32,000 bases of DNA from Breznakia sp. PF5-3 (GCF_029504745.1 NZ_JAQFIQ010000028.1:1-32000); one strand, 5' to 3'. Shown: positions 3,014 through 31,286, counted from the stretch's first letter. A program made the numbers and translations. Notes: generated by a model from the letters alone, not told the origin.

Positions 3014-3562
3014 TTATTTGTTTGTAAACTTATCTTCTTCAGGTGCAAATTGAGCTTGTGGGAAACCACACACTGGACAAATACCAGGAGCATCTGTTCC
3101 TTCATGATGATAACCACAAATTGCACATACCCATGTAGTAGGAGCATCTTTTTTAAATACTTTTCCTTCTTCTACATTTTTAAGCAATGCAAGATACCTT
3201 TCCTCATGTCCTTTTTCAATTTTTGCTACTTGTTCCATTTGGAAAGCAATTTTTGTAAAGCCTTCTTCCTTTGCTGTTTCAGCCATGTGTTTATACATGT
3301 CTGTCCATTCATAGTTTTCACCTTCAGCAGCTTGTTTTAAATTATCCGCTGTTGTATGGATATCTCCACCTTGTAAAGCTTTAAACCATAGCTTAGCATG
3401 TTCTTGTTCATTTCTTGCTGTTTCTAAGAAAATATCAGCAATTTGTTCCATACCTTCTTCTTTTGCTTTTTGAGCAAAATAAGTGTATTTGTTTCTTGCC
3501 ATTGATTCCCCAGCAAATGCATCCAATAAATTTTTTTCTGTTTTTGATCCTTTTAAGTCCAT
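3014..3562 (-). CDS. rbr: rubrerythrin (182 aa; diiron four-helix domain plus C-terminal rubredoxin-like CxxC...CxxC)
   Basis: [29 protein letters not shown]..., ExxH motifs ([17 protein letters not shown]), C-terminal CAICGY...CPVCG. Start chosen at ATG 3562, preceded by GGAGGAAAG. The track ORF extends to 3643 but overlaps the upstream gene. Confidence 0.93.
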
Positions 3563-3575
3563 GTTCTTTCCTCCG

Positions 3576-3956
3576 TTATTTGCAATTTCTGCAGACTCCT
3601 TTAAAGATGATATCATGACCATCAATCTTTCCAATAACTTCATTGTCAGATATCGTTTTGTCCAATTCTAATTTGTAAGGTTCATCTAAATCATACAACG
3701 TTTTACATTTTTCGCAATAAAAATGATAATGCGGATTACATGTTTTATCATATACATACCGTTCTTGTGGTAATGCAATTTTCTTTACTTTCTGTAAATC
3801 TTCAAGAATCCCTAAATTGCGATAAACCGTTGCTAGTGATATCTTCTTCTCTTCCTTATTTATATTTTCATAAATCTCTTCTGCACTGACATGTGCATTA
3901 ATGCCTTGCATATATTCAAGAATAAGTTCACGTTGTTTAGAATTTTTATACGTCAT
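3576..3956 (-). CDS. perR: Fur-family regulator, PerR-like (126 aa)
   Basis: Winged-helix N-terminus (RELILEYM..., ATVYRNL), HYHFYCEKC...CRNC zinc site. Start at ATG 3956 preceded by GGGGGTG. The gene is 13 nt upstream of rubrerythrin, which is why I call it PerR rather than Fur or Zur. Confidence 0.72.
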
Positions 3957-3969
3957 AGTCACCCCCAAA

Positions 3970-4043: not shown

Positions 4044-4065
4044 ATCATAAAAAAATATGAATCAA

Positions 4066-4100
4066 ATAAAAAACCTCTCAAGATTCTTACTCAGAGGTTT
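4066..4100 (-). terminator. rho-independent terminator after the signal-peptidase gene
   Basis: On the - strand: AAACCTCTGAGTAAGAATCTTGAGAGGTTT followed by TTTTATTT. Located 28 nt after the lepB stop. Confidence 0.8.
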
Positions 4101-4127: not shown

Positions 4128-4697
4128 TTATTTAAATATTATAAAAATATCTTTACTGATGATGTCGCCACCTTTAAATGGTCCCAAAATTCTAGAATCT
4201 CTTGATATTCGTCGATTATCACCACACAAAAAATATTCATTATCTCCTAATACAATAGGTCCATAATCAGAAGTAAAATTAATAGCTCCTGCATTTGTTT
4301 GTTCTTTTACATAATCATCATCAAGAAAGTATTCTTCAACTGGATTTCCATTAACATAAAGGATATCATCCCGATATTGTATCGTTTCTCCTGGTAAACC
4401 AACTACTCGTTTAGCAAGATTCTTTTTTTCACTTTCATCATAGACAGTTACAATATCAAAACGTTTTAGTTCACCAAAATGACGATTCACAATTCCCGTC
4501 ACACCTATCTCTCCATCTTCCAATGTTGGATACATGCTATCGCCATTGACATAAATAGGACGAATAACACAAGTAAGTACCAACAAAGTAACAATTGTAA
4601 TTGGAAAAACAAGTTGAAGTATCCTTAAAATTTCAAGTTTTCGGTTGCTCTTTTTAATATCTTTTTTTATTTCTAAAATTCTATTTGATTGTTTCAT
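4128..4697 (-). CDS. lepB: type I signal peptidase (S26 family, Ser-Lys dyad), 189 aa
   Basis: N-terminal TM helix, GDSMYPTL (catalytic Ser box), AKRVVGLPGE (catalytic Lys box), GDNRRISRDSR box E. GGTGATG RBS before the ATG. Confidence 0.9.
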   Translation of the reverse strand: MKQSNRILEIKKDIKKSNRKLEILRILQLVFPITIVTLLVLTCVIRPIYVNGDSMYPTLEDGEIGVTGIVNRHFGELKRFDIVTVYDESEKKNLAKRVVGLPGETIQYRDDILYVNGNPVEEYFLDDDYVKEQTNAGAINFTSDYGPIVLGDNEYFLCGDNRRISRDSRILGPFKGGDIISKDIFIIFK

Positions 4698-4713: not shown

Positions 4714-5637
4714 TTACCTATTTTTATAACTTCTTTTTCTTTTATATAGTATCATAAATACAATACTTCCTAAAAGCAATATAAGAATATTAATTTTTAT
4801 ACTGTCACCAGTATTTATCTTATTTGTATTTCCATTTATAGGATCATTCACATCAAGTTGTAAACGAAATATAATCTCATCGTCTTCTTTTGCTGTATAC
4901 AATCCTGCATTATCTTCATTTAACGCTTTTATGTCCAAAACATTTCCATCAATAATTTTTTCACTACCACTTGATGCACTTTGAAAGTACCAAGTAACAT
5001 TATGATGTTCACTTACATCTGTTGACTCCATTCCTTGCACTTTGCTCCACATATCTTGTTCATAAACATATGTAGGACTTTCCATAAAACGAAGATCAAC
5101 AAAAAGCGAATCTCCAATATTTTGCCCATGGAAGTATACACCGTTTTGAAGTTGTTCATCTTTTACTTCGATATCATTCACAACTGCATGTAATGCATTT
5201 CCTTCATACATTATAAGTTTTGTAGAAGTATTACCTAAAACCCCTGAAGATAATAAGTTTGCATATTTCTCTGATGATCCATCAGGAACAACAATTTTCT
5301 TCAAATTGCTACAATCCAAAAAGGCATTTTTCCCAATATAATTAATCGTACCAGGAATACTTATCTCTTCTAGTTCTTTACTCCCAAGAAAAGCTTCACT
5401 TTCAATCGATGTCACTGTTCTCTTTTTATACACCTTCGGAATATCCACCTTTGAATCAAAACTCAAATAGCCGATGATTTGATAATCTTCATCAGCCAAT
5501 TGTTGATATTTAAAGTTATGGTCTTTACTAATAGCTCCAGTTGGTGTAGTAATCTGTGATATGCTTACAAAGATAAGCACTAGAAATATAAAAACTAAGA
5601 TTGTCTCCCTTAAAAATACCCTTTTTATTCCTCTCAT
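4714..5637 (-). CDS. surface protein with BspA-type leucine-rich repeats and a C-terminal sorting-like signal (307 aa)
   Basis: Signal/TM peptide. SIESEAFLGSKELEEISIPGTINYIGKNAFLDCSNLKKIVVP is the LRR_5/BspA pattern. The C-terminus is KINTGDS plus a hydrophobic helix plus KRKRSYKNR. The ATG is 3 nt after the upstream stop. Confidence 0.7.
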   Translation of the reverse strand: MRGIKRVFLRETILVFIFLVLIFVSISQITTPTGAISKDHNFKYQQLADEDYQIIGYLSFDSKVDIPKVYKKRTVTSIESEAFLGSKELEEISIPGTINYIGKNAFLDCSNLKKIVVPDGSSEKYANLLSSGVLGNTSTKLIMYEGNALHAVVNDIEVKDEQLQNGVYFHGQNIGDSLFVDLRFMESPTYVYEQDMWSKVQGMESTDVSEHHNVTWYFQSASSGSEKIIDGNVLDIKALNEDNAGLYTAKEDDEIIFRLQLDVNDPINGNTNKINTGDSIKINILILLLGSIVFMILYKRKRSYKNR

Positions 5638-5640
5638 ACA

Positions 5641-6807
5641 CTATTCAGATACAGAATCTGTTGTTGAATTCCCTTCACCTATTTTCATAGTTCCAGAGAT
5701 TTTTGCACCTTTTTCAATGTCAATATAAACAGCAGAAATATCTCCTAAAATCATAGCTTGACTTGAGAAAGAAATATCCGCTTTTGCAGTAACATTTCCT
5801 TCAATAGATCCATTGATTTCCATCGCTCTTGCTTGTACATTTCCTTTCACAAAAGTATCCTCACCAATATAAACGTCATTATTAACATTTATATTACCAA
5901 CAACTTTTCCACTATGTAAATTCAAAGACTGTGCTGTCACATCACCTGTAACAAGTGCATTTTCATCAAATTCAACACTTTTTCCACAAGTAAGATTTCC
6001 TCGAATTTCACCTCTTACAATAAGTGGTGTTTCAACACTCACATTCCCATCAATTACTAAGCCATTTCCAAATACAGAATATTCTTCTGAACTTGATGTT
6101 GAATGCCCCATATTTGCATTATTATCATTAACATTTTCATTATTCAAATCATTGTTATAATCCATTTTTCTTTCCTCCCTGTCAGAAACTACTTTTTCTT
6201 TCTTTATTTCTTTGACCATTGTAGGCTTATACTTTCTATTTGCAAACGAAGTCACTGGGCTCACTTCTTTAACTACCTCTTTTTCTTTCGGTGTATCGTC
6301 AATTGTGTTTACAGGACTAGTAACTTTCTTAATATCTTGTTTTGGATATTTAGACTGAATTAATATTCCTTCAACATCATTATTTAGCGCATATATTTTT
6401 TCACTTTCATTTTCAATGATTTCATTTATATATGCTAACACCGATGTGACATCCCTCAAGTCATAATCATCTAGTGCTTGTTCATTAAGAGATAAAATTA
6501 TCGAATTGCACCCCATTAACATTTCCGATAATGAATTAAATCTACTTTCAATATGTTTTTGTTTTAACAACTCTGAAATTTCTCGATCATGTTTCGATAT
6601 TTCTTTCAGTTGCTCCCACTCTTTTGAAAATAATTTATCGGATAATTCTTCGTAAGCAACTTTAGAAAGTTCTAACTCCTTTATATATTTCGTCTTTAAT
6701 ATTTTGCGAATCAAAAATGTTACTACAAATACTGCAACAAGCAAAATAAGAAGCGTTGCTATAAATGGAACAGAAAAAATATTTACAGCTGCTACAAAAT
6801 TAACCAT
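5641..6807 (-). CDS. membrane-anchored bactofilin-domain (polymer-forming cytoskeletal) protein, 388 aa
   Basis: N-terminal TM helix followed by RKILKTKYIK, a coiled-coil-like region, and an Asn-rich linker. The C-terminal ~130 aa has the beta-helical bactofilin repeat pattern (GNVSVETPLIVRGEIRGNLTCGKSVEFDENALVTGDVTAQSLNLHSGKVVGNINV...GNVTAKADISF...GDISAVYIDIEKGAKISG). RBS AAAGGAGAA. Confidence 0.75.
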   Translation of the reverse strand: MVNFVAAVNIFSVPFIATLLILLVAVFVVTFLIRKILKTKYIKELELSKVAYEELSDKLFSKEWEQLKEISKHDREISELLKQKHIESRFNSLSEMLMGCNSIILSLNEQALDDYDLRDVTSVLAYINEIIENESEKIYALNNDVEGILIQSKYPKQDIKKVTSPVNTIDDTPKEKEVVKEVSPVTSFANRKYKPTMVKEIKKEKVVSDREERKMDYNNDLNNENVNDNNANMGHSTSSSEEYSVFGNGLVIDGNVSVETPLIVRGEIRGNLTCGKSVEFDENALVTGDVTAQSLNLHSGKVVGNINVNNDVYIGEDTFVKGNVQARAMEINGSIEGNVTAKADISFSSQAMILGDISAVYIDIEKGAKISGTMKIGEGNSTTDSVSE

Positions 6808-6841
6808 ATATTCTCCTTTCTTTACTTACTATCATAATTTA

Positions 6842-6867
6842 GTCGCTTAAAAGCCTTTTAAGGTTCA
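6842..6867 (-). promoter_or_regulatory. ECF-type promoter candidate P3 (bactofilin-LRR-lepB operon)
   Basis: On the - strand: TGAACC-TTAAAAGGCTTTTAAG-CGAC (16-nt spacer), ending 34 nt upstream of ATG 6807. Same geometry as the motif upstream of the sigma gene. Confidence 0.55.
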
Positions 6868-7023
6868 CTATTTCCAGTATAAAGTGTATTTTTACCATCA
6901 TTTACCCGAAAAAGCTATGTTCTTTCATGCGAGTGCCCCATAATTATATTAGTCTCTATATACATTATAATATAATTTAAATTATTCGCCCAATCATATT
7001 ATCATTTATATTATAGGTTTTAA

Positions 7024-7059
7024 TATAAAAATATGCAAATACTATTCGTATTTGCATAT
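7024..7059 (-). terminator. rho-independent terminator after the 446-aa gene
   Basis: Perfect 12-bp stem ATATGCAAATAC/GTATTTGCATAT (7031-7059) with a 5-nt loop, followed on the - strand by TTTTTATATT. Confidence 0.8.
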
Positions 7060-7116
7060 CGTAATTTTTCCAAAATATAATATATGTTCAATAAATCATG
7101 TTTCATTTATAAATTT

Positions 7117-8457
7117 TTAAAAATCAATTTCGGCTGTGTAATAGTAATTAATTACTACTGGATCTGTTGATTTTTCCAATACAAAATCTCCACGATCTGC
7201 TCCTTGATAAGAGCTTTCTGTCAAGTCTCCAAATTTATATTTATAGTCTTCAATAACGATTGTTGTTCCTACTTCTAAAGTAACGACTTCTTCTTTATAA
7301 ACTCGATATTCCTCACCAAGACCTTCTGTATCTACCCAGTGGCGAATGATAATATCTTCTGTGTAATAAGTTGCGGCATTTGAGAAAACAACTTTATGGG
7401 TTCCACTTTTCTTTAATTGTGTCGCTTCTTTTCCTTTACAACATGCTTCATTTGTACGGTATCCAACAATGTTTCCATCCTTGAAGTTTGCACTATATGG
7501 ATCCCCAATCAAACCTTGACCATTATAGTAAATTCCTGCAGGTTCAGAATACCATTGATAGTTACCCATATAACACATATTTCTATTTACTGTTGGATAC
7601 ATAGCTGTAACATCAACAGCAACATCATCTGTAACAACCAATCCAGAATTTAAATATATTTCTTGAACCATTGCTCCACAGTATGCTCTTAACATTTGTT
7701 TATCTGCTTGTAATGCTGAAACTCCACTATAGATATTACGTGAAATTCCAGTAATTGAACTACCTGCACCTTCAGCTTGGATATGAGCAATTTGTGTTCT
7801 TGCTCCACAACTTCCACCTTCACCACTAACAGTTGCACCTTTCCACGCATAGATATCTCTGTATGCCCAAATTCCTGTGCTATCAGCTCCTGATGCATAA
7901 CCATATATTGATGCTGAATAATATGGTTTGATATCGTTATAACACCAAATACCATAATTTATTCCATACCCAGAAATTGATCCACCTTCCATTTGAATTT
8001 CGTTATATACACGAATTCCAGCTGTAGTTCCTGTTGCACTAACCGTTCCAACACCATTTTTAGTATATTTAAATGCTTTTAAATGACCACCAACATTAAT
8101 ACCAAATTCATCTGCTGTATTAGCATTCAAAGCTCCACTACCTCTAAACTCTAAGTCTTTTTTTGTATAAATAGAGTTCACATTTACTGGTACTGTATTA
8201 TTTAAATATATTTTTTGATCTCTTGAACTATAAATTACTGCATTTTCATTCAATAAATAAGTTCCTTTTTTAGTTGAAAGAATGTTACTACCATCCTTTT
8301 GTGTTGTTATTGTTGCATCATATCCTTTCAAGTCAATATTTCCACTTAAAACTGCATAGCTTGATGCATCCGCTTTAAATGAAAACGTTAAGACTGAAAA
8401 AACCGAAAAAATACTTAACATCACCATAAAACTTTTAAACATTTTGCGCTTCATCAT
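7117..8457 (-). CDS. secreted repeat protein of unknown function with a MucBP-like C-terminal domain (446 aa from ATG 8457)
   Basis: Signal peptide MMKRKMFKSFMVMLSIFSVFSVLTFSFKADA. Central Gly/Tyr/Trp-rich short repeats (GINYGIWCYNDI, STGIWAYRDIYAW, GIRVYNEIQMEGG) suggest a beta-solenoid. The C-terminal IIIRHWVDTEG...VVINYYYT resembles MucBP. No anchor is present. The track start at 8529 is a TTG that overlaps the putative promoter. Confidence 0.6.
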   Translation of the reverse strand: MMKRKMFKSFMVMLSIFSVFSVLTFSFKADASSYAVLSGNIDLKGYDATITTQKDGSNILSTKKGTYLLNENAVIYSSRDQKIYLNNTVPVNVNSIYTKKDLEFRGSGALNANTADEFGINVGGHLKAFKYTKNGVGTVSATGTTAGIRVYNEIQMEGGSISGYGINYGIWCYNDIKPYYSASIYGYASGADSTGIWAYRDIYAWKGATVSGEGGSCGARTQIAHIQAEGAGSSITGISRNIYSGVSALQADKQMLRAYCGAMVQEIYLNSGLVVTDDVAVDVTAMYPTVNRNMCYMGNYQWYSEPAGIYYNGQGLIGDPYSANFKDGNIVGYRTNEACCKGKEATQLKKSGTHKVVFSNAATYYTEDIIIRHWVDTEGLGEEYRVYKEEVVTLEVGTTIVIEDYKYKFGDLTESSYQGADRGDFVLEKSTDPVVINYYYTAEIDF

Positions 8458-8520
8458 AATTTCTTCATTTCCCTCGCTTTCATATGTATTTTTGGATTTA
8501 TTTACATATATCAAAAGTAT

Positions 8521-8546
8521 GTCGCGCAAGTCCTAAAAAAGGTTTT
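8521..8546 (-). promoter_or_regulatory. weaker ECF-type promoter candidate P4 (446-aa gene)
   Basis: On the - strand: AAAACC-TTTTTTAGGACTTGCG-CGAC, followed by ATAC. It shares GACTTnnGCGnCATAC with the sigma-gene promoter, but its -35 is AAAACC rather than TGAACC. Confidence 0.35.
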
Positions 8547-8635
8547 CTTTTTTCTAAAAAAAGTTGTTTTTTTCATAATTGTTGAACACCTAGTACATAT
8601 ATTAATTTATCATGTTTTCTTTTTTCTTCTTATCG

Positions 8636-8672
8636 ATAAAAAGCAGGTATAAAATATATCATTTATACCTGC
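8636..8672 (-). terminator. rho-independent terminator after the lipoprotein gene
   Basis: GCAGGTATAAA / TTTATACCTGC stem (8643-8672), followed on the - strand by TTTTTATCG. Confidence 0.8.
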
Positions 8673-8688
8673 ATTCATTTATAGCTAT

Positions 8689-9144
8689 TTATTCAATTTT
8701 TCCACAACTATATTCTTCTGCCTCTAATTCTTTTACTAGCTTTTTGATGTTTTTATATTCTTTTATTCCTAATTCTTTAACATCACCTTCACTTGCTTTA
8801 CTTGGATCAATTTCTATTTTCACTGATAATTTCTTTTTCTTCTTATCAACTGAAATATCAAATTCTAACCCTTTTTGCTTTTTGTTTGGATTTATATAGT
8901 CATTCTTATAAAGTTCTTCTAACTCTTCAATTTCATAATCTTCGAACAAGTAATCTGCTAATGCAGCCTCTCTTGTCACGATAATTTTTTCTACTTTTTT
9001 ATCACCATCGTATGTAGCTGTTACTTCGTCTACAATTTCTGATGATCCATAATCCAATTTACAAGTTACTTCTTTCGCTTTGCTTTCGCCTCCGCATCCT
9101 GCTAATACTAGTATTAGACTAAATATCATTACTACTTTTTTCAT
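8689..9144 (-). CDS. small lipoprotein (151 aa), YehR/DUF1307-like by pattern
   Basis: Lipobox LILVLAGC-GGESK. Lys/Glu-rich mature part. RBS GAAGGAGG before the ATG. Confidence 0.6.
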   Translation of the reverse strand: MKKVVMIFSLILVLAGCGGESKAKEVTCKLDYGSSEIVDEVTATYDGDKKVEKIIVTREAALADYLFEDYEIEELEELYKNDYINPNKKQKGLEFDISVDKKKKKLSVKIEIDPSKASEGDVKELGIKEYKNIKKLVKELEAEEYSCGKIE

Positions 9145-9245: not shown

Positions 9246-12200
9246 CTATTCTTCCTCTTCTTTTTTTCTTTTCACTAAGTAAATCACACTCATAAACGAT
9301 ATGATTCCCATTGCGAATAAACTATTTAAATTCGTATCATCACCTGTTGTTACAGCTGTACTTGGTTTTGATACAGTTGGAGGTGTTACAGATGGTTTTC
9401 TTCCTGGTGTTACAGTCACCTTAATCACTGTTGCATATTCTACACCTTCATGTTCAACACTCAACTTCACATCGTATACTCCACCAAGAATTGTACTTCC
9501 CTTAACTACTCTTAAGTGTTCTTGGTGTACAGCTATCGATTCTTTTGTTGGTGCCAATGCCCTAGTTTTTGAATTTATGATTACATCTGCTTCTGACAAT
9601 TCTAATACTTTTGCTTCATTCATGTTTGATGCTTCAGCATGTGAAATTGTGAAATCTTTCGCTGTAATATCTAGAGCTGTTTTCGTTACATTTACATTCA
9701 CTGTAACTTTTGTTGTTGGTTCTTTCACTACATGGAATGTTACTTGATATACACCAGCTTCTCCTATTACATTATGACTCTCTACTTCAACTTTTGCGCT
9801 TGAAAGATCTTTCTTCAACCATGCCTCTGCTTCTGTTAAAGCAATCAATTGATCATTTGTAATTGTTTCTGCTGTGTGTGAGTTTATTGTAATATGGTTT
9901 GCCCCAATATAATATTTATCACCTTTCACAATCACATCTTTTGCTTTTACCTTAATTTTAATAGTTGCTTTTGTATCTTTTTCTTCATCCACATAGAATG
10001 TTGCTGTGTAATCACCTTCAGCCGCCTTAAAGTCTGTTGTTTCCAACTTCACTGTTCCTGCACTCATATCTTTACGTTTGAATGCTTCCGCTTTTGATAA
10101 CTCAATTAATTTTGTATTGTCACTAATTGCTTCTGCTTCTGCTAGTGTCATCACTAAATTGTTGGCAACAATTGTATATTCATCTCCGTGTTCGATAACA
10201 TTTCCATCTTTTACTTTGATTTTGATTGTTGCTTTTGTATCTTTTTCTTCATCCACATAGAATGTTGCTGTGTAGTCACCTTCAGCGGCCTTGAAGTTTG
10301 TTGTTTCAAGTTTTACAGTTCCAGCACTCATATCTTTACGTTTGAATGCTTCTGCTTTTGATAATTTAATTAACTCATTGTTATTTTTAATTGCTTCAGC
10401 TTCTTCCAATGTCATTACTAAATTGTTAGCTCCGATTGTGTATTCATCTCCGTGCTCAATTACATCTTTATCGATTACTTTGATTTTAATCGTTGCTTTT
10501 GTTGCTTTTTCTTCATCTACATAGAACGTTGCTGTATAGTCACCCTTAGCCGCCTTGAAGTTTGTTGTTTCCAACTTCACTGTTCCAGCACTCATATCTT
10601 TGCGCTTGAATGCTTCTGCTTTTGATAACTCAATTAATTTCGTATTGTCACTAATCGCTTTCGCTTCATCTAGTGTCATTACTAAGTTGTTTGCTCCGAT
10701 TGTGTATTCATCTCCGTGCTCGATTACATCTTTATCGATTACTTTGATTTTAATCGTTGCTTTTGTTGCTTTTTCTTCATCTACATAGAATGTTGCTGTG
10801 TAGTCACCTTTCGCTGCTGTAAAGTTTGTTGTTTCAAGTTTTACTGTTCCAGCACTCATATCATCACGATTAATTGCTACAGCTTTTGATAACTCAATTA
10901 ATTTCGTATTGTCAGTGATTGCTTTTGCTTCATCTAATGTCATTACTAAGTTGTTTGCTCCGATTGTATACTTATCTCCATGTTCGATTACATCTTTATC
11001 GATTACTTTGATTTTAATCGTTGCTTTTGTATCTTTTTCTTCATCTACATAGAATGTCGCTGTATAGTTACCTTTCGCTGCTGTAAAGTTTGTTGTTTCC
11101 AGCTTCACTGTTCCCACACTCATATCTTTACGTTTGAATGCTTCTGCTTTTGATAACTCAATCAGTTTTGTATTGTCACTAATTGCTTTCGCTTCATCTA
11201 GTGTCATTACTAAGTTGTTTGCAACTAGTGTATATTTATCTCCGTGTTCAATTACATTTCCATCTTTTACTTTGATCTTAATAGTCACTTTCGTTGCTTT
11301 TTCTTCATCTACATAGAATGTTGCTGTATAGTCACCCTTAGCTGCTGTAAAGTCTGTTGTTTCAAGTTTTACTGTTCCTGCACTCATATCTTTACGTTTG
11401 AATGCTTCTGCTTTTGATAACTCAATCAGTTTCGTATTGTCACTAATTGCTTTCGCTTCATCTAGTGTCATTACTAAGTTGTTTGCTCCAATTGTATACT
11501 TATCTCCGTGTTCGATTACATCTTTATCGATTACTTTGATTTTTACTGTTACTTTCGTTGCTTTTTCTTCATCTACATAGAATGTTGCTGTGTAATCACC
11601 CTTAGCTGCTGTAAAGTTTGTTGTTTCAAGTTTTACTGTTCCTTTGCTTAGGTCTTCTAACTTCCATGCTTCTGCTTTCGCTTTTTTAACTAACTCACTG
11701 TTGTCTGTCATCGCTTTCGCTTCATCGACTGTCATTACAATGTTGCTAGCTACTAGTGTATACTTGTCGCCTTCTTTGATTACATCGCCATCTACTACTT
11801 TCGCGATTGCTTTCACTTCATCTTTTGGATCCGTTGCTGCTTTCACTTTGATAACTACTTCGTAATCTTTGACTTCTGCTTTATATCCACCATTGTCTTT
11901 CACCATCAAGTCTGCACTTGGTACTGGCAATCCTGTTGCGATTGACCATGCTTTTGCTTCTGTCTTTTCTAAGATTTCAGCGTCTGTTCCGGTTACATCA
12001 TCTTTCAAGATTACATAGTTATGTAAGTCATATGCATAATCTTTTCCTACATACAATCCTACTGCTACTACTCTTGATTTCTTAACTGTATTGTAGTCAC
12101 TGTCAGTTACACTGTATTCTACTACATACATTCCTTTTTTCGATGTATCTACAGTTCCTGTTGATATTACTTTACTTGTAATATCTTTATCTTCTTCATC

Positions 12201-15200
12201 GTATGCACTAACTCCATGTTTGTAGTCATATGCATCCCCAATATTTAAACTCATGAATTCTGGATTCACTGTTAATACTGGCGCATTTCCGTTCACTACT
12301 TTTACAGCTACACGAACTTCTGTTGCTGGTTCTTCTGCTACATAGAATGTAACATAGTATGTTCCTACGGTTCCTTCAACATTGTGTGTTTTCACTTTTA
12401 CTGTTCCTGCACTCATGTCTTTACGTTTGAACGCTTCTGCTTTTGTAAGATCAATCAATTGATCATTAGTAATACTTTCGGCAACACTTCTTGTGATTTC
12501 AATGTTGTTAGCTCCGATTGTATACTTATCTCCATGTTCGATTACATCTTTATCGATTACTTTGATTTTAATCGTTGCTTTTGTATCTTTTTCTTCATCT
12601 ACATAGAATGTCGCTGTGTAGTCACCTTTTGCTGCTGTAAAGTTTGTTGTTTCAAGTTTTACTGTTCCTGCACTCATATCATCACGATTAATTGCTACAG
12701 CTTTTGATAACTCAATCAGTTTTGTGTTGTCAGTGATTGCTTTCGCTTCATCGACTGTCATTACTAAGTTGTTAGCTCCGATTGTATACTTATCTCCGTG
12801 TTCGATTACATCTTTATCGATTACTTTGATTTTAATCGCTGCTTTCGTTGCTTTTTCTTCATCTACATAGAATGTTGCTGTGTAGTCTCCATTAGCTGCC
12901 TTGAAGTTTGTTGTTTCAAGTTTTACTGTTCCCACACTCATATCTTTACGTTTGAATGCTTCTGCTTTCGATAACTCAATCAGTTTTGTATTGTCACTAA
13001 CCGCTTTCGCTTCATCTAGTGTCATTACTAAGTTGTTGGCAACGATTGTATATTCATCTCCATGTTCAATGACATTTCCATCTTTTACTTTGATCTTAAT
13101 TGTTACTTTCGTCGCTTTTTCTTCATCCACATAGAATGTTGCTGTGTAGTCACCTTCTGCTGCCTTGAAGTTTGTTGTTTCAAGCTTTACTGTTCCTGCA
13201 CTCATATCTTTACGTTTGAATGCTTCTGCTTTCGATAACTCAATCAGTTTTGTATTGTCACTAACCGCTTTCGCTTCATCTAGTGTCATTACTAAGTTGT
13301 TTGCTCCGATTGTATACTTATCTCCATGTTCGATTACATCTTTATCGATTACTTTGATTTTTACTGTTACTTTCGTTGCTTTTTCTTCATCCACATAGAA
13401 TGTTGCTGTATAGTCTCCCTTAGCTGCTGTAAAGTTTGTTGTTTCAAGTTTTACTGTTCCTTTGCTTAGGTCTTCTAACTTCCATGCTTCCGCTTTCGAT
13501 AACTCAATCAGTTTTGTATTGTCACTAACCGCTTTCGCTTCATCGACTGTCATTACAATGTTGCTAGCTACTAGTGTATACTTGTCTCCTTCTTTGATTA
13601 CATCGCCATCTACTACTTTTGCGATTGCTTTCACTTCATCTTTTGGATCCGTTGCCGCTTTCACTTTGATAACTACTTCATAATCTTTGACTTCTGCCTT
13701 GTATCCACCATTGTCTTTCACCATCAAGTCTGCACTTGGTACTGGCAATCCTGTTGCGATTGACCATGCTTTTGCTTCTGTCTTTTCTAAGATTTCTGCA
13801 TCTGTTCCTGTTACATCATCTTTCAAGATTACATAGTTGTGTAAATCATATGCATAATCTTTTCCTACATACAATCCTACTGCTACTACTCTTGATTTTT
13901 TAACTGTATTGTAGTCACTGTCAGTTACACTGTATTCTACTACATACATTCCTTTTTTCGATGTATCAACAGTTCCTGTTGATATTACTTTACTTGTAAT
14001 ATCTTTATCTTCTTCATCATATGCACTAACTCCATGTTTGTAGTCATATGTATCTCCAATATTTAAACTCATGAATTCTGGATTCACTGTTAATACTGGT
14101 GCATTTCCGTTCACTACTTTTACAGATACACGAACTTCTGTTGCTGGTTCTTCTGCTACATAGAATGTAACATAGTATGTTCCTACGGTTCCTTCAACAT
14201 TGTGTGTTTTCACTTTTACTGTTCCTACACTCATGTCTTTACGTTTGAACGCTTCTGCTTTTGTAAGATCAATCAATTGATCATTAGTAATACTTTCAGC
14301 TACACTTCTTGTAATTTCAATGTTGTTTGCTCCGATTGTATACTTATCTCCGTGCTCGATTACATCTTTATCGATTACTTTAATTTTAATCGTTGCTTTC
14401 GTTGCTTTTTCTTCATCTACATAGAATGTCGCTGTGTAGTCACCCTTAGCTGCTGTAAAGTTTGTTGTTTCAAGCTTTACTGTTCCTGCACTCATGTCTT
14501 TACGTTTGAATGCTTCTGCTTTTGATAACTCAATCAGTTTTGTGTTGTCACTAATTGCTTTCGCTTCATCTAGTGTCATTACTAAGTTGTTTGCTCCGAT
14601 TGTATACTTATCTCCGTGTTCGATTACATCTTTATCGATTACTTTGATTTTAATCGTTGCTTTTGTTGCTTTTTCTTCATCTACATAGAATGTTGCTGTA
14701 TAGTCACCCTTAGCTGCGGCAAAGTTTGTTGTTTCAAGTTTTACTGTTCCTTTGCTTAGGTCTTCTAACTTCCATGCTTCTGCTTTCGCTTTGCCTACTA
14801 ACTCACTGTTGTCTGTCATCGCTTTCGCTTCATCGACTGTCATTACAATGTTGCTAGCTACTAGTGTATACTTGTCACCTTCTTTGATTACATCGCCATC
14901 TACTACTTTCGCAATTGCTTTCACTTCATCTTTTGGATCTGTTGCTGCTTTTGCTTTGATAACTACTTCGTAATCTTTGACTTCTGCTTTATATCCACCA
15001 TTGTCTTTTACCATGATTTCCGATTGTGCAAGTTTTAAACCTGTTTTCGTTGACCATGCTTCTACTTCTGTCTTTTCTAAGATTTCTGCGTCTGTTCCTG
15101 TTACATCATCTTTCAAGATTACATAGTTGTGTAAATCATATGCATAATCTTTTCCTACATACAATCCTACTGCTACTACTCTTGATTTTTTAACTATATT

Positions 15201-18200
15201 GTAGTCACTGTCAGTTACACTGTATTCTACTACATACATTCCTTTTTTCGATGTATCTACAGTTCCTGTTGATATTACTTTACTTGTAATATCTTTATCT
15301 TCTTCATCGTATGCACTAACTCCATATTTGTAGTCATATGCATCTCCAATATTTAAACTCATGAATTCTGGATTCACTGTTAATACTGGTGCATTTCCAT
15401 TAATTACAGTTACTTTAACTTTTACAGTTGTTGATGGATTTTCTTTCACTTGGAAAATAGCATAGTATGAAGTTGAAGTGGTATCAGTTCCGATATTTGC
15501 TTCTTTTACTTCTACTGCTACTGTACTAAAGTCTTTTACTTTCCATCCTTCTGCATTACCCCAATCAATTAAATTATTATTTGTATAATTTTCTGCTTGG
15601 CTTCTTGTAATTGTAATGTTATTTGCTCCAATTGCATAATGTTCTTCTGATGTTAATTCATCTTTTTTCATTACTTTAATTGTAATTGTTGCTTTTGTTG
15701 CTTTTTCTTCATCCACATAGAATGTTGCTGTATAAGTACCTTCAGCTGCCTTGAAATCTGTTGTTTCAAGTTTTACTGTTCCAGCACTCATATCATCACG
15801 ATTAATTGCTACAGCTTTTGATAACTCAATCAGCTTCGTATTGTCAGTGATTGCTTTCGCTTGCTCAACATTCATTACTAAGTTATTAGCTCCGATTGTA
15901 TATTTGCTTCCTGTTTCAATCACATGCTTATCGATTACTTTGATTTTAATCGTTGCTTTCGTTGCTTTTTCTTCATCTACATAGAATGTCGCTGTGTAGT
16001 CACCCTTAGCTGCTGTAAAGTTTGTTGTTTCAAGCTTTACTGTTCCTGCACTCATGTCTTTACGTTTGAATGCTTCTGCTTTTGATAACTCAATCAGTTT
16101 TGTATTGTCACTAATTGCTTTCGCTTCATCTAGTGTCATTACTAAGTTGTTTGCAACTAGTGTATATTTATCTCCGTGTTCAATGACATTTCCATCTTTT
16201 ACTTTGATCTTAATCGTTACTTTCGTCGCTTTTTCTTCATCCACATAGAATGTTGCTGTGTAGTCACCTTCTGCTGCCTTGAAGTTTGTTGTTTCAAGTT
16301 TTACTGTTCCAGCACTCATATCTTTACGTTTGAATGCTTCTGCTTTTGATAACTCAATCAGTTTCGTATTGTCACTAATTGCTTTCGCTTCATCTAGTGT
16401 CATTACTAAGTTGTTTGCTCCAATTGTATACTTATCTCCGTGTTCGATTACATCTTTATCAATTACTTTGATTTTTACTGTTACTTTCGTTGCTTTTTCT
16501 TCATCTACATAGAATGTTGCTGTATAGTCTCCCTTAGCTGCTGTAAAGTTTGTTGTTTCAAGTTTTACTGTTCCTTTGCTTAGGTCTTCTAACTTCCATG
16601 CTTCTGCTTTCGCTTTTTTAACTAACTCACTGTTGTCTGTCATCGCTTTCGCTTCATCGACTGTCATTACAATGTTGCTAGCTACTAGTGTATACTTGTC
16701 GCCTTCTTTGATTACATCGCCATCTACTACTTTCGCGATTGCTTTCACTTCATCTTTTGGATCCGTTGCCGCTTTCACTTTGATAACTACTTCATAATCT
16801 TTGACTTCTGCTTTATATCCACCATTGTCTTTCACCATCAAGTCTGCACTTGGTATTGGCAGTCCTGTTGCGATTGACCATGCTTTTGCTTCTGTCTTTT
16901 CTAAGATTTCAGCATCTGTTCCGGTTACATCATCTTTCAAGATTACATAGTTATGTAAGTCATATGCATAATCTTTTCCTACATACAATCCTACTGCTAC
17001 TACTCTTGATTTCTTAACTGTATTGTAGTCACTGTCAGTTACACTGTATTCTACTACATACATTCCTTTTTTCGATGTATCTACAGTTCCTGTTGATATT
17101 ACTTTACTTGTAATATCCTTATCTTCTTCATCGTATGCACTAACTCCATGTTTGTAGTCATATACATCCCCAATATTTAAACTCATGAATTCTGGATTCA
17201 CTGTTAATACTGGCGCATTTCCGTTCACTACTTTTACAGCTACACGAACTTCTGTTGCTGGTTCTTCTGCTACATAGAATGTAACATAGTATGTTCCTAC
17301 GGTTCCTTCAACATTGTGTGTTTTCACTTTTACAGTTCCTGCACTCATGTCTTTACGTTTGAACGCTTCTGCTTTTGTAAGATCAATCAATTGATCATTA
17401 GTAATACTTTCGGCAACACTTCTTGTGATTTCAATGTTGTTTGCTCCGATTGTATACTTATCTCCATGTTCGATTACATCTTTATCGATTACTTTGATTT
17501 TTACTGTTACTTTCGTTGCTTTTTCTTCATCCACATAGAATGTCGCTGTGTAGTCACCTTTCGCTGCTGTAAAGTTTGTTGTTTCAAGTTTTACTGTTCC
17601 TGCACTCATATCTTTACGTTTGAATGCTTCTGCTTTCGATAACTCAATCAGTTTCGTATTGTCACTAATTGCTTTCGCTTCATCTAGTGTCATTACTAAG
17701 TTATTTGCTCCGATTGTGTATTCATCTCCGTGTTCGATTACATCTTTATCGATTACTTTGATTTTAATCGTTGCCTTTGTTGCTTTTTCTTCATCTACAT
17801 AGAATGTCGCTGTGTAGTCACCTTTCGCTGCTGTAAAGTTTGTTGCTTCAAGTTTTACTGTTCCTGCACTCATGTCTTTACGTTTGAATGCTTCTGCTTT
17901 TGATAACTCAATTAATTTCGTATTGTCACTAACCGCTTTCGCTTCATCTAGTGTCATTACTAAGTTGTTAGCTCCGATTGTATACTTATCTCCGTGTTCG
18001 ATTACATCTTTATCGATTACTTTGATTTTTACTGTTACTTTCGTTGCTTTTTCTTCATCCACATAGAATGTTGCTGTGTAGTCTCCCTTAGCTGCTGTAA
18101 AGTTTGTTGTTTCAAGTTTTACTGTTCCTTTGCTTAGGTCTTCTAACTTCCATGCTTCTGCTTTCGCTTTTTTAACTAACTCATTGTTGTCTGTCATCGC

Positions 18201-21200
18201 TTTCGCTTCATCGACTGTCATTACAATGTTGCTAGCTACTAGTGTATACTTGTCGCCTTCTTTGATTACATCGCCATCTACTACTTTCGCAATTGCTTTC
18301 ACTTCATCTTTTGGATCTGTTGCTGCTTTTGCTTTGATAACTACTTCGTAATCTTTGACTTCTGCTTTATATCCACCATTGTCTTTTACCATGATTTCCG
18401 ATTGTGCAAGTTTTAAACCTGTTTTCGTTGACCATGCTTCTACTTCTGTCTTTTCTAAGATTTCAGCATCTGTTCCGGTTACATCATCTTTCAAGATTAC
18501 ATAGTTATGTAAGTCATATGCATAATCTTTTCCTACATACAATCCTACTGCTACTACTCTTGATTTCTTAACTGTATTGTAGTCACTGTCAGTTACACTG
18601 TATTCTACTACATACATTCCTTTTTTCGATGTATCTACAGTTCCTGTTGATATTACTTTACTTGTAATATCTTTATCTTCTTCATCGTATGCACTAACTC
18701 CATGTTTGTAGTCATATGCATCCCCAATATTTAAACTCATGAATTCTGGATTCACTGTTAATACTGGTGCATTTCCATTAATTACAGTTACTTTAACTTT
18801 TACAGTTGTTGATGGATGTTCTTTCACTTGGTAAACAACATAATAATCTGTTGAAGTAGTATCAGTTCCAATATTCGCTTCTTTCACTTCTACTGCTACT
18901 GTACTAAAGTCTTTTACTTTCCATCCTTCTGCATTACCCCAATTAATTAAATTATCATTTGTATAATTTTCTGCTTGGCTTCTTGTAATTGTAATGTTAT
19001 TTGCTCCAATTGCATAATGATCTTCTGATGTTAATTCATCTTTCTTCATTACTTTAATTGTAATTGTTGCTTTTGTATCTTTTTCTTCATCTACATAGAA
19101 TGTTGCTGTATAAGTACCTTCTGCTGCTTTGAAATCTGTTGTTTCAAGTTTTACTGTTCCTGCACTCATATCATCACGATTAATTGCTACAGCTTTTGAT
19201 AACTCAATCAGTTTTGTGTTGTCAGTGATTGCTTTCGCTTGCTCAACATTCATCACTAAGTTATTAGCTCCGATTGTATATTTGCTACCTGTTTCAATCA
19301 CATGCTTGTCGATTACTTTGATTTTAATCGTTGCTTTTGTTGCTTTTTCTTCATCTACATAGAATATCGCTGTATAGTCACCCTTAGCTGCTGTAAAGTT
19401 TGTTGTTTCAAGTTTTACTGTTCCTGCACTCATGTCTTTACGTTTGAATGCTTCTGCTTTTGATAACTCAATCAGTTTTGTATTGTCACTAATTGCTTTC
19501 GCTTCATCTAGTGTCATTACTAAGTTGTTTGCAACTAGTGTATATTTATCTCCGTGTTCAATGACATTTCCATCTTTTACTTTGATCTTAATAGTTACTT
19601 TCGTTGCTTTTTCTTCATCTACATAGAATGTTGCTGTGTAGTCACCTTCAGCTGCCTTGAAGTTTGTTGTTTCAAGTTTTACTGTTCCAGCACTCATATC
19701 TTTACGTTTGAATGCTTCTGCTTTTGATAACTCAATCAGTTTTGTATTGTCACTAATCGCTTTCGCTTCATCTAGTGTCATTACTAAGTTGTTTGCTCCG
19801 ATTGTATACTTATCTCCGTGTTCGATTACATCTTTATCGATTACTTTGATTTTTACTGTTACTTTCGTTGCTTTTTCTTCATCCACATAGAATGTCGCTG
19901 TATAGTCTCCCTTAGCTGCTGTAAAGTTTGTTGTTTCAAGTTTTACTGTTCCTTTGCTTAGGTCTTCTAACTTCCATGCTTCTGCTTTCGCTTTTTTAAC
20001 TAACTCACTGTTGTCTGTCATCGCTTTCGCTTCATCGACTGTCATTACAATGTTGCTAGCTACTAGTGTATACTTGTCGCCTTCTTTGATTACATCGCCA
20101 TCTACTACTTTCGCGATTGCTTTCACTTCATCTTTTGGATCCGTTGCTGCTTTCACTTTGATAACTACTTCGTAATCTTTGACTTCTGCTTTATATCCAC
20201 CATTGTCTTTCACCATCAAGTCTGCACTTGGTATTGGCAGTCCTGTTGCGATTGACCATGCTTTTGCTTCTGTCTTTTCTAAGATTTCAGCATCTGTTCC
20301 GGTTACATCATCTTTCAAGATTACATAGTTATGTAAGTCATATGCATAATCTTTTCCTACATACAATCCTACTGCTACTACTCTTGATTTCTTAACTGTA
20401 TTGTAGTCACTGTCAGTTACACTGTATTCTACTACATACATTCCTTTTTTCGATGTATCTACAGTTCCTGTTGATATTACTTTACTTGTAATATCTTTAT
20501 CTTCTTCATCATATGCACTAACTCCATGTTTGTAGTCATATGCATCCCCAATATTTAAACTCATGAATTCTGGATTCACTGTTAATACTGGTGCTTTTCC
20601 ATTAATTACGTTTACATCTACCGTTGCTTTTACACTTGGATCTGCATCTACCTTGAAAGTCGCTTTATATAATGATGCAACTCCCTTTACAGTATGTGTA
20701 TCTAAGGATACTGCTACTTCACTACGATCAGATCTCTTCCATCCTTTCGCACCTGTCAACGATTTTAATTCTGTCGCTGCATATGTTGCATTATCTTCGA
20801 TTTTCTTTGCTTCACCTAAGCGAATCTCAATATGGTTTGCTCCTATGATATATTCATCATTTACTTCTACTACATCATATGGTAATACTTCAAAGGTTAC
20901 TTCTTTTGTGATAGTTTCTTCTTTTCCTACACTAAAGACTACCTTATATTCTCCAGCTTCTGCTTTATATCCACCTTTTGATTTAACTTTTACAGGTGTT
21001 TCTGTACCTAAAGATGTATCGATTGCTTTCGCTTTCGCTAAATTAATAAAGTCTTGATCATCTACTACTAATTTAGCATTATCTAACCCGATGATTACAT
21101 CATTTGCACTAATCGTATATAACACTTTTTGAACAATCACTTTCGTTGCTGCTTTAAAAGTAGCATCGTGATAATCTTTTGTTGCTACTGGATTTTTATT

Positions 21201-23771: not shown

Positions 23772-23852
23772 TTAATACCCTCCTCCTATTGGCTTTTATT
23801 CAAGCAAATATCACACATATGAAAAATCAATTTTCATAATGAGTATCGGTAA

Positions 23853-23878
23853 GACGCATAAGTCAAAATTCAGGTTCA
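23853..23878 (-). promoter_or_regulatory. ECF-type promoter candidate P2 (giant adhesin gene)
   Basis: On the - strand: TGAACC-TGAATTTTGACTTATG-CGTC (16-nt spacer), followed by TTAC. Located 25 nt after the LRR-gene stop and about 80 nt upstream of ATG 23771. It shares TGAAC...TGACTTAnGCGTCnTAC with P1. Confidence 0.6.
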
Positions 23879-23903
23879 TTATTTTTTAAAAAAATTGAAA
23901 AAT

Positions 23904-26579: not shown

Positions 26580-27759
26580 TACGCACAACCTTCTTTCTCT
26601 TTTGATAGTATAGATAAATAAGTACAATCAATAATGATATAATAAATGGAATTGCACTAATCAACAGTTTGAATGGAAAAGATTTTTCGGCATTAATTTT
26701 AAGTTTAGTAAAAAAATCAATATAGAATCTCTCAGGCGAAGAAACTATTTTACTATCATATTCTGTGTATATACTTCCTTCAATGATTTTATCCACACGA
26801 TAGGATAATCCTGATTTTGATATTTCATCCTTTTGGTACAATGCATACACAACTGTATCCTCTGTGATATCATGCAAATCTTCCGACCACCCTAAAAATG
26901 TATTATTATTTTTCTTCGGTCCTGCAATGGCTTCACCATCATCTCCATAATTTACAAAAGTTTGATAATAAAGTTCATTATCTACATAATATGAAACACG
27001 ATATTGCTTAATCACAAATGTAGCATATAAATTCATTGATTTTTTTATCTTTTCGCCATTATAAAAAAAACCTTTTCCATCTAACTGTGTATTAAAGCCA
27101 AGAAAACGATATCCTTTTTTCGAAACAAGTGGAGTATCTACTACTTGATTATTTTTCACCTTTATTTGTTTCAACAATATCGTTCCATCATAGAAATTAA
27201 CTGTATGAGTTGTATTATTGAATCCAAACTTTCCTCGAAACGCATGTTCATAGGTTTCGCTTTTATCACCCATGGTAATTTCACTAGATAATATTTTCAT
27301 ATCTACACTGATTTTATCTCGTGAAGACCCGATTGTCATAACTTCTAAATCATAAGTTGTTTTCGTACTATTTAAAGCAATCGCTTTTCCATTATTGAGA
27401 TAAGAAGTATATTCATCCTGTGAAGCATTACGACCATTAATTTTTAATACTCCCTTATAATAATCTTTAAATTTGATACCTTCTTTTTCTATAAATAAAA
27501 TTTTAGAGTCAACCACTCCTGAATGATTCACTACATTCATTGTAATTTTAACAGTTGATCCATAAGGAACATCTGTAGTACTCTCTAGGCTATATGCCTG
27601 TCCTGAAGCAGATATTACTTTAGCACTTGAAGATAGTGACAAATCAAAGTAAACCTCTTTTGCTTCCACGCTAAAAATACCAGTGAGTAAACTAAACACC
27701 ACTGATATCGTTAACACTGCAAATGTTACTACCTTTCTTATTGTCCCTGTCTTATTCAT
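26569..27759 (-). CDS. membrane protein with two InlB-B / Listeria-Bacteroides (Flg_new) repeats (396 aa from ATG 27759)
   Basis: Signal peptide MNKTGTIRKVVTFAVLTISVVFSLLTGIFSVEA. HTVNFYDG...KKGYRFLGFNTQLDGKG...NLYATF and YRVSYYVDNE...NNTFLGWSEDLHDITEDTVVYALY fit the repeat pattern. C-terminal TM helix plus QKRKK. The alternative TTG start at 27777 lacks an SD. The stop overlaps the next ATG by 11 nt. Confidence 0.75.
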   Translation of the reverse strand: MNKTGTIRKVVTFAVLTISVVFSLLTGIFSVEAKEVYFDLSLSSSAKVISASGQAYSLESTTDVPYGSTVKITMNVVNHSGVVDSKILFIEKEGIKFKDYYKGVLKINGRNASQDEYTSYLNNGKAIALNSTKTTYDLEVMTIGSSRDKISVDMKILSSEITMGDKSETYEHAFRGKFGFNNTTHTVNFYDGTILLKQIKVKNNQVVDTPLVSKKGYRFLGFNTQLDGKGFFYNGEKIKKSMNLYATFVIKQYRVSYYVDNELYYQTFVNYGDDGEAIAGPKKNNNTFLGWSEDLHDITEDTVVYALYQKDEISKSGLSYRVDKIIEGSIYTEYDSKIVSSPERFYIDFFTKLKINAEKSFPFKLLISAIPFIISLLIVLIYLYYQKRKKVVRNEV

Positions 27760-27766
27760 ATTCGCC

Positions 27767-29086: not shown

Positions 29087-29115
29087 AAAGTATCGCCCCC
29101 ATCCACTTCATGTAT

Positions 29116-29141
29116 GACGCTTAAGTCAGCGAAAAAGTTCA
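29116..29141 (-). promoter_or_regulatory. ECF-type promoter candidate P1 (autoregulatory, sigma operon)
   Basis: On the - strand: TGAACT-TTTTCGCTGACTTAAG-CGTC (16-nt spacer), followed by ATAC, ending 29 nt upstream of ATG 29086. It lies directly downstream of the terminator that insulates it from grcA. Confidence 0.6.
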
Positions 29142-29179
29142 CTTTCTTCATACTATTTATAACAAAAATACTTACTTAT

Positions 29180-29237: not shown

Positions 29238-29471
29238 TTACATACCTGCATGCATAGTACGATGTATTACATCATCTTGCTGTTCTTTGGTAAGTTTATT
29301 AAAATTCACAGCATATCCAGATACTCGAATTGTTAATTGAGGATACTTCTCTGGATTTTTTTGAGCATCTAATAATATTTCTCGATTAAATACATTTACA
29401 TTCAAATGATGCCCACCACTTGCTGCATATCCATCAATCATTGTTACCAAATTACTAATACGATCTTTCAT
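29238..29471 (-). CDS. grcA: autonomous glycyl-radical cofactor (GrcA/YfiD-like), 77 aa
   Basis: [54 protein letters not shown] is collinear with the C-terminal glycyl-radical segment of pyruvate formate-lyase, including the RVSGYAV radical-Gly motif. Confidence 0.85.
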
Positions 29472-30407: not shown

Positions 30408-30419
30408 AAGTTGATCCTC

Positions 30420-31268: not shown

Positions 31269-31286
31269 ATATTTACGCTCCTAATT

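Follow-up and report, generated by a model that had tools for sequence, protein, structure and literature searches.

A predicted ECF-type promoter of a bactofilin-LRR-signal peptidase operon and its probable place in the regulon of a sigma-fusion protein in Breznakia

The operon that encodes a bactofilin-domain protein, an LRR protein and a type I signal peptidase in Breznakia sp. PF5-3 is preceded by a predicted ECF-type promoter (P3), which is probably read by a 439-aa sigma-fusion protein encoded in the same 32,000-nt stretch of DNA (hereafter the window) or by another member of its family, so that the operon and the sigma-adhesin genes would belong to one regulon. The first-pass annotation had suggested that this regulon reaches beyond the contiguous sigma operon, and the suggestion is supported, at the sequence level, by the statistics of the motif, its recurrence throughout the sigma family, the footprint seen in orthologous upstream regions and the synteny of the genes concerned.

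P3 and the bactofilin operon

The window has a GC content of about 33% and belongs to Erysipelotrichales, its proteins being identical to NCBI entries assigned to unclassified Breznakia; all genes from 29086 down to 4128 are on the minus strand. P3 and the operon behind it comprise the following features.

7060..7030, minus strand: intrinsic terminator of the preceding 470-aa gene (fold -15.5 kcal/mol, z = -5.5, 0/200 shuffles as stable)
6868..6839, minus strand: P3, predicted ECF-type promoter GTGAACC-N16-CGACTAA (sequence, exact pattern, matrix rank, orthologous conservation)
6868..6862, minus strand: P3 -35 element, GTGAACC
6861..6846, minus strand: P3 spacer, 16 nt
6845..6839, minus strand: P3 -10 element, CGACTAA (CGAC core 6845..6842)
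6819..6813, minus strand: ribosome-binding site AAAGGAG, 5 nt before the ATG at 6807
6807..5641, minus strand: gene 1, 388-aa bactofilin-domain protein (PF04519, 88.5 bits vs cut-off 27.9)
5637..4714, minus strand: gene 2, 307-aa BspA-type LRR protein (PF13306, 45.7 bits)
4697..4128, minus strand: gene 3, type I signal peptidase, S26 (PF10502, 132 bits; TIGR02227, 113.9 bits vs cut-off 47)
4100..4063, minus strand: intrinsic terminator ending the triad operon (fold -16.9 kcal/mol, z = -3.3, stem followed by UUUUUUAUUU)

The 33-mer from which the analysis started, GTGAACCTTAAAAGGCTTTTAAGCGACTAAATT, is present on the minus strand, though at 6868..6836 and not at 6870..6838, where it had been placed (a shift of 2 nt). 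The distance to the gene had been given correctly, since exactly 34 nt (6841..6808) separate the CGAC core from the ATG at 6807, and the expected ribosome-binding site is there. Two orthologous loci (L001 and L003, see below) carry an identical stretch around this site, AAGAAAGGAGA, and alignment of the orthologues points to the ATG at 6807 as the true start of the bactofilin gene. P3 fits the classical ECF architecture (AAC in the -35 element, CGT/CGA in the -10 element, a spacer of 16-17 nt), and an ECF sigma gene, presumably the cognate one, with the same motif upstream is present in the window (29086..27767, promoter P1).

The bactofilin protein has a transmembrane helix at its N-terminus, then a coiled/low-complexity linker, and the bactofilin domain at its C-terminus (residues ~250-374), which the positive-inside rule would place in the cytoplasm. 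The 307-aa LRR protein has a signal/anchor at the N-terminus and a transmembrane anchor at the C-terminus, and the translation of the signal peptidase contains the Ser/Lys catalytic boxes GDSMYPT and KRVVGLPGE. The strong terminator at 7060..7030 insulates the operon from the preceding gene, and hence the bactofilin operon needs a promoter of its own. No Rfam match was obtained anywhere in the window, so that no riboswitch or leader RNA accounts for the 310-nt intergenic region.

Copies of the motif in the window and in the sigma family

The sigma operon, the genes between it and the bactofilin operon, and two further copies of the motif are arranged as follows.

29142..29113, minus strand: P1, GTGAACT-N16-CGTCATA, 29 nt before the sigma gene (pattern match)
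29086..27767, minus strand: 439-aa ECF sigma-fusion (Pfam Sigma70_r2, r4_2, ECF)
27777..26569, minus strand: 402-aa secreted, C-terminally anchored partner, weak Flg_new (Listeria-Bacteroides repeat)
26627..23904, minus strand: 907-aa LRR/Ig surface protein
23879..23850, minus strand: P2, ATGAACC-N16-CGTCTTA, before the 4841-aa adhesin gene (second-best window site by matrix)
23771..9246, minus strand: 4841-aa adhesin
9144..8689, minus strand: lipoprotein
8529..7117, minus strand: 470-aa secreted protein

P1, presumably the autoregulatory promoter of the sigma operon, shares with P3 the exact 16-nt spacer and the TTAAGCG stretch, both as originally described (GTGAACT-N16-CGTC, 29142..29116). 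With the family matrix it scores lower (10 bits), and its -10 element, CGTCATAC, reappears as CGACATAC before the sigma orthologue of locus L093, both being of the CG(T/A)CATAC type. The copy of the motif that had been reported 17 kb from P3 corresponds to P2, whose positional counterpart in L001, ATGAACC-N16-CATCTTA, likewise precedes an adhesin gene. The -10 core is CGAC in P3 and CGTC in P1 and P2.

Two more sites were seen in the window. A candidate fourth family promoter, P4 (GAAAACC-N16-CGACATAC, 8547..8517, minus strand), lies about 60 nt before the likely ATG (~8457) of the gene for the 470-aa secreted protein, just past a terminator (8672..8643); its matrix score is low (~7 bits) because its -35 element is AAAAC. 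The P4 sequence GACTTgcGCGaCATAC is close to GACTTaaGCGtCATAC of P1, and in L093 GAAAACC-N16-CGTCTTAC is found before the adhesin gene and TGAACT-N16-CGACATAC before the sigma gene. The other site, TTGAACAT-N15-CGACTTAT (25750..25720, minus strand, ~12 bits), is the fourth exact match to TGAAC-N17-CGAC; it is inside the gene of the 907-aa LRR/Ig protein and may be an internal promoter or just a chance occurrence.

Several features of the surrounding genes were also observed. The composition of the adhesin gene is strongly skewed (AT skew to -0.4), and antisense ORFs of 107-108 aa recur in it at regular spacing (12384, 14202, 17316), hinting at long internal repeats. Just upstream of P1 there is a small ORF of ~77 aa (29470..29238, minus strand) that looks, from its C-terminal end, like a possible stand-alone glycyl-radical (GrcA/YfiD-like) domain. 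Judging from translations only, the flanking genes of the window look ordinary, with a Fur/PerR-like regulator overlapping a rubrerythrin-like gene at 3014..3968 and three tandem DegV-like paralogues at 29553..31973.

The sigma-fusion family comprises about 18 full-length members, from Breznakia isolates and metagenome contigs. Five further loci of the family were compared, namely L087 (Breznakia sp. PF5-3), L088 (B. pachnodae) and the metagenomic contigs L089, L090 and L093. In all five the bipartite motif occurs 30-80 nt before the sigma gene and recurs before the neighboring large surface-protein genes, and in some of them it also precedes a small gene located before the sigma gene. The gapless alignment of 17 family sites yields the consensus aAAAaa-(A/G)TGAACC-N16-(C/T)G(T/A)CTAA, the spacing being identical in 17/17 sites; many of them have a T-tract adjoining the -35 element. 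Sites of the paralogous loci differ mainly in the -10 element, which is CAACTAA in L087, CGTCTAA in L088 and TGTCTAA in L089/L090, and L093, with a sigma 49% identical to the one studied here, has both CGAC and CGTC sites before its sigma gene.

The small gene just before sigma in L089 (9504..9857) and L090 (8586..8930) encodes a protein of 114-117 aa with no Pfam match and has a strong family promoter of its own (16-20 bits), being a putative conserved regulon member. The search of genome contigs with the sigma alignment returned mostly generic ECF sigmas of unrelated phyla; its only full-length relative was L007 (a Coprobacillaceae MAG), where no convincing motif was found.

Statistical significance of the motif

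The pattern TGAAC-N17-CGWC has four exact matches in the window, while 0.155 are expected (26-fold enrichment), and three or more matches were reached in 0/1000 Markov shuffles. All four matches are on the minus (coding) strand, and three of the four lie at most 120 nt upstream of a gene start (P1 of the sigma gene, P2 of the adhesin gene, P3 of the bactofilin gene), the share of strand-positions that qualify being 3.2%. When one mismatch is allowed, no enrichment is seen in the window (7 vs 5.9), so that it is the exact sites that carry the signal, and only exact or matrix tests are informative.

With a matrix built from the ten sites of the paralogous loci L087-L090, none of which is orthologous to P3, P3 scores 19.35 bits and ranks first among the 64,000 window positions, P2 ranking second; the maximum of 1.2% of 500 random 32-kb windows equals or exceeds this score. 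When the orthologous sites, likewise from outside the window, are included, P3 scores 23.7 bits, which is reached by 0/200 nulls, and again ranks first, with P2 second. In the leave-one-locus-out scan (~173 kb, both strands) P3, with 20.3 bits, is again the top site of the window, and all matches of at least 14 bits are intergenic and co-oriented with the next gene, sitting 30-80 nt before sigma, adhesin, small-protein or bactofilin genes.

These numbers bear on the simplest alternative, a functionless chance resemblance in AT-rich intergenic DNA. The motif is short, its one-mismatch form is as frequent as expected, and the 1.2% of random windows mentioned above do reach the score of P3. Against this, the exact matches are not only enriched but biased in strand and position, P3 has the right distance and orientation to its gene, the two promoter blocks are conserved in three lineages against diverged flanks, and the operon is syntenic with the sigma gene (see below), so we regard mere coincidence as exceedingly improbable.

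Conservation of P3 in orthologous loci

The homologue search yields only six close homologues of the bactofilin protein, and no relatives turned up in the metagenome contigs searched with the bactofilin alignment. An orthologue of P3 is found in L001 and L002 (the Erysipelotrichaceae bacterium MTC7 lineage) and in L003 and L004 (another Breznakia), where AAAAGTGAACCTAAAAGTCGTyTTGTrCGACTAAyTTATTAT stands upstream of the bactofilin gene at the same distance from the ATG as in P3; the encoded bactofilin proteins are 45-49% identical to that of the window.

In the anchored comparison the -35 block AGTGAACCT of the window coincides with that of both L001 and L003 in 9/9 positions, and the -10 block GCGACTAA in 8/8 and 7/8 positions, respectively. 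The 15-nt spacer between them retains 8/15 and 6/15 positions and the 79 nt upstream 41% and 35% identity, the flanks thus being at the background level. Two blocks kept within diverged spacer and flanks (35-53%) look like the footprint of a two-block promoter rather than general conservation of the region.

The P3 orthologue is carried by three independent lineages only. The motif is absent upstream of the bactofilin orthologues in L005 (43% bactofilin identity, no sigma gene nearby) and in L091 and L092 (36% identity), and thus ECF control of the triad would be lineage-specific. In the two latter loci the triad follows a large surface-protein gene; it is associated with big surface proteins more widely than with ECF control.

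The region has additional symmetries. The spacer of P3 forms a perfect palindrome, CTTAAAAG-G-CTTTTAAG (6862..6846); L001 (9950..9966) and L003 (5730..5746) have a different dyad, AGTCG-N7-CGACT, overlapping the -10 element. Moreover, the -35 element of P3-type promoters is followed by an A-tract, while most family sites have a T-tract. These dyads and the A-tract could be an operator of a second regulator, a DNA-bending feature or a coincidence. The RNA fold of the P3 region and the 5' UTR is not significant (z = 0.44), and for this reason the reading of the P3 dyad as an attenuator was rejected.

If the block were such an operator of a dimeric regulator, or some other cis element, the operon might be transcribed chiefly from a sigma-A promoter farther upstream. 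There is a candidate, TTTGCA-18-TATAAT at 7039..7010, which matches the consensus in 10/12 positions about 200 nt before the ATG, and L001 has a comparable site ~210 nt upstream. However, sigma-A-like matches occur in the AT-rich window at the frequency expected by chance (38 vs 32.9 +/- 5.5), the one at 7039..7010 overlaps the terminator stem, the search of the 1.2 kb preceding the L003 orthologue gave none on the coding strand, and the upstream sequence is unconserved. As for an operator, the dyads differ in sequence between the lineages while the two ECF hexamer blocks are kept, the same blocks stand before unrelated genes in the paralogous loci, which an operon-specific operator does not explain, and the 5' region has neither significant RNA structure nor an Rfam match. 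Altogether, transcription mainly from sigma-A is very unlikely, though the site at 7039..7010 might still act as a second promoter.

Synteny of the triad with the sigma gene

In L001-L004 the bactofilin-LRR-signal peptidase triad is located directly upstream of the sigma gene, which independently backs the link, proposed in the first-pass annotation, of the bactofilin and the signal peptidase to the sigma-adhesin genes. The 45-nt gap between the triad and the sigma gene in these relatives contains no family motif and no hairpin, and there is no match of at least 11.5 bits between the P3 orthologue and the sigma gene, so the P3 orthologue is the sole family-type promoter able to serve the sigma gene there. 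Since it heads the sigma-containing cluster, it is presumed to be the autoregulatory sigma promoter in the relatives.

The genes for bactofilin, LRR protein, signal peptidase, sigma, partner, LRR/Ig protein and adhesin form a single cluster in the relatives (L001 10001..21167, L002; L003 5783..8829), and the gene order after the sigma gene is the same as in the window in L001, L002, L087, L088, L089 and L093. In the window the triad is found downstream of the adhesin gene, with two extra genes, those of the lipoprotein and the 470-aa protein, in between. By gene order, P3 is the counterpart of the presumed autoregulatory sigma promoter of the relatives, a rearrangement in this genome having split the cluster into two parts, both with a copy of the promoter, of which the triad keeps the ancestral-type one. 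In L093 the sigma block is also split from the triad and has its own promoter(s).

The same comparison helps to decide which sigma factor reads P3. It may be a real ECF-type promoter read mainly by a paralogous sigma encoded elsewhere, with the triad in an overlapping or different regulon. Indeed, Breznakia genomes encode several sigma-fusion paralogues (P0017, P0020, P0030) with 29-42% identity, their sites differ mainly in the -10 element, and P3 deviates from P1 and P2 by one base there; in B. subtilis, single -10 bases (CGAC, CGTA, CGTC) switch which ECF sigma reads a site, discriminating sigma-X, which uses CGAC, from sigma-W, which uses TGAAAC/CGTA (PMC5758882). The difference between CGAC in P3 and CGTC in P1 and P2 is therefore a real caveat. 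It is softened by the orthologous clusters, since CGACTAA is the only family-type promoter before the sigma orthologue of L001-L004 (59% identity), which would mean that CGAC is read by this orthologue group, and by L093, where both cores precede the sigma gene; the conserved linkage of the triad with this sigma orthologue also argues for cognate control. Hence a paralogous sigma as the main reader seems unlikely. All sequence-level predictions of the promoter reading that were put to test held, which supports P3 as a promoter of the family type.

The sigma-fusion protein

In the 439-aa protein an ECF core (residues 1-190) is joined by a linker to a transmembrane segment (~255-285), beyond which comes a tandem Ig-like ectodomain (288-437); the N-terminus is predicted to be inside and the C-terminus outside. 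The solved structure closest to the core is that of B. subtilis SigW (E = 1e-23), and Foldseek also finds it SigW-like; SigW gives the best NCBIfam match as well. The protein was nevertheless not assigned to SigW, as its scores are below the equivalog cut-offs (NF007223, 114.5 bits vs 209; TIGR02948, 104.8 bits vs 243).

The family alignment displays the conserved linker motif GYxPxKYFSFxFTP, followed by the hydrophobic segment (~255-285) and a C-terminal domain of 150 aa. AF2 models residues 288-437 as a confident all-beta structure (pLDDT ~90), identified by Foldseek as tandem Ig-like. Residues 190-255 have no Pfam match and a pLDDT of 25-39, and the AF2 model is not usable for the linker and the transmembrane region (pLDDT <40).

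Pfam detects no RsiW-type zf-HC2 anti-sigma factor encoded directly downstream of the sigma gene. The 402-aa protein encoded there was considered for this role and rejected, having a signal peptide, a short cytoplasmic tail and no anti-sigma domain.

Throughout the family the transmembrane segment (~255-290) contains a cluster of small residues (G/A/S/T, e.g. GLGAAGS), with aromatic residues after it at the outer end. The cluster is reminiscent of the c-region of a signal peptide or of a helix-destabilizing site of intramembrane proteolysis.

Comparison with known ECF systems

The family sites resemble B. subtilis promoters of sigma-W/X/M/V (ECF30-type; TGAAAC-N16-CGTA, CGAC, CGTC) in the invariant AAC of the -35 element, CGT/CGA of the -10 element and the spacing of 16-17 nt, as well as in the autoregulatory copy before the sigma operon and the T-tract adjoining the -35 element in many sites. 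Unlike in B. subtilis, the -35 element is TGAACC instead of TGAAAC, the -10 element extends to C(G/A)(T/A)CTAA, and in P3 and its orthologues the tract following the -35 element consists of A and not of T. The sigma itself differs from SigW of Bacillus in scoring below the equivalog cut-off and in having no RsiW-type zf-HC2 anti-sigma factor downstream.

The domain organization, an ECF core followed by a C-terminal membrane segment and an extracytoplasmic sensory domain, with no separate anti-sigma factor, is like that of IutY of Pseudomonas putida (ECF243) and SCO4117 of Streptomyces coelicolor (ECF52), sigma/anti-sigma hybrids that are thought or have been shown to need proteolytic release (PMC8999054, PMC5826349). 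The differences are the phylum, here Bacillota (Erysipelotrichales), the ectodomain, here tandem Ig-like, the lack of a FecR-like or zinc-finger anti-sigma domain detectable by Pfam in the sigma-fusion, and the predicted targets, here giant adhesins and the bactofilin-LRR-signal peptidase module.

In the sigma-V/RsiV system of B. subtilis and the sigma-P/RsiP system of B. thuringiensis a type I signal peptidase makes the site-1 cut (PMC4183432, PMC8844934). The sigma-fusion resembles the substrates of these systems in its predicted type-II orientation (N in, C out). In those systems, however, the protein that is cut is a separate anti-sigma factor and the enzymes are housekeeping signal peptidases, whereas here a dedicated signal peptidase gene is predicted to be under an ECF-type promoter. 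It may simply be that this peptidase processes the co-regulated secreted proteins.

Proposed regulation and its significance

The sequence evidence carries the sites as far as promoters of the family type; binding of the motif by this particular sigma, the start site, co-expression of the genes and activation of the tethered sigma are what we infer beyond that. P3 would be read by the SigW-like ECF domain of the sigma-fusion encoded 22 kb upstream, or by a sigma of the same family, with region 4 contacting the -35 element GTGAACC and region 2 the -10 element CGACTAA across the 16-nt spacer. Transcription would start a few nucleotides past the -10 element, at ~6835..6831, about 25-30 nt before the ATG.

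A surface signal would free the sigma domain from the membrane, most likely by proteolytic release, and RNA polymerase with the freed sigma would then read P1 (its own operon), P2 (the giant adhesin) and P3, and perhaps also the fourth site, P4, ahead of the 470-aa gene. The entire 25-kb block would then form one regulon for surface remodeling. Its output would be adhesins together with a membrane-anchored bactofilin facing the cytoplasm, the LRR protein and a dedicated signal peptidase, which plausibly processes the co-induced secreted proteins.

The triad may also be a part of the regulon switch and not just its cargo, an idea that we hold to be unlikely. In that case site-1 cleavage of the sigma-fusion, within its signal-anchor-like transmembrane segment, would be the task of the type I signal peptidase, release of the sigma domain would afterwards fall to a site-2 protease, and the membrane-anchored bactofilin would be a cytoplasmic scaffold localizing the machinery. 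The peptidase gene being under the sigma's own promoter, this would result in positive feedback and an all-or-none display of the giant adhesin. Any role of the signal peptidase in cutting the sigma-fusion is, however, pure conjecture.

The literature search found no study of this system or of transcription in this organism, and the combination of a sigma with Ig-like ectodomains, giant adhesins and the bactofilin-LRR-signal peptidase module is apparently uncharacterized so far. As a promoter P3 is an ordinary one of the ECF type, and its value is in the regulon content and in the evidence of a split cluster with the promoter copies kept. The consensus (A/G)TGAACC-N16-(C/T)G(T/A)CTAA may be used for genome-wide prediction of the regulon in Breznakia and its relatives. 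If read as proposed, P3 would define a compact regulon in an uncultivated-type gut lineage of Erysipelotrichales (insect-gut Breznakia), where a one-component tethered ECF sigma with Ig-like ectodomains controls, besides giant adhesins, a membrane-anchored bactofilin, a private signal peptidase and an LRR protein. Such a regulon would tie a cytoskeletal-type protein to the regulated display of surface proteins, and it would offer a sigma-fusion from a Gram-positive bacterium in which the route of activation, perhaps by way of the signal peptidase, could be dissected.
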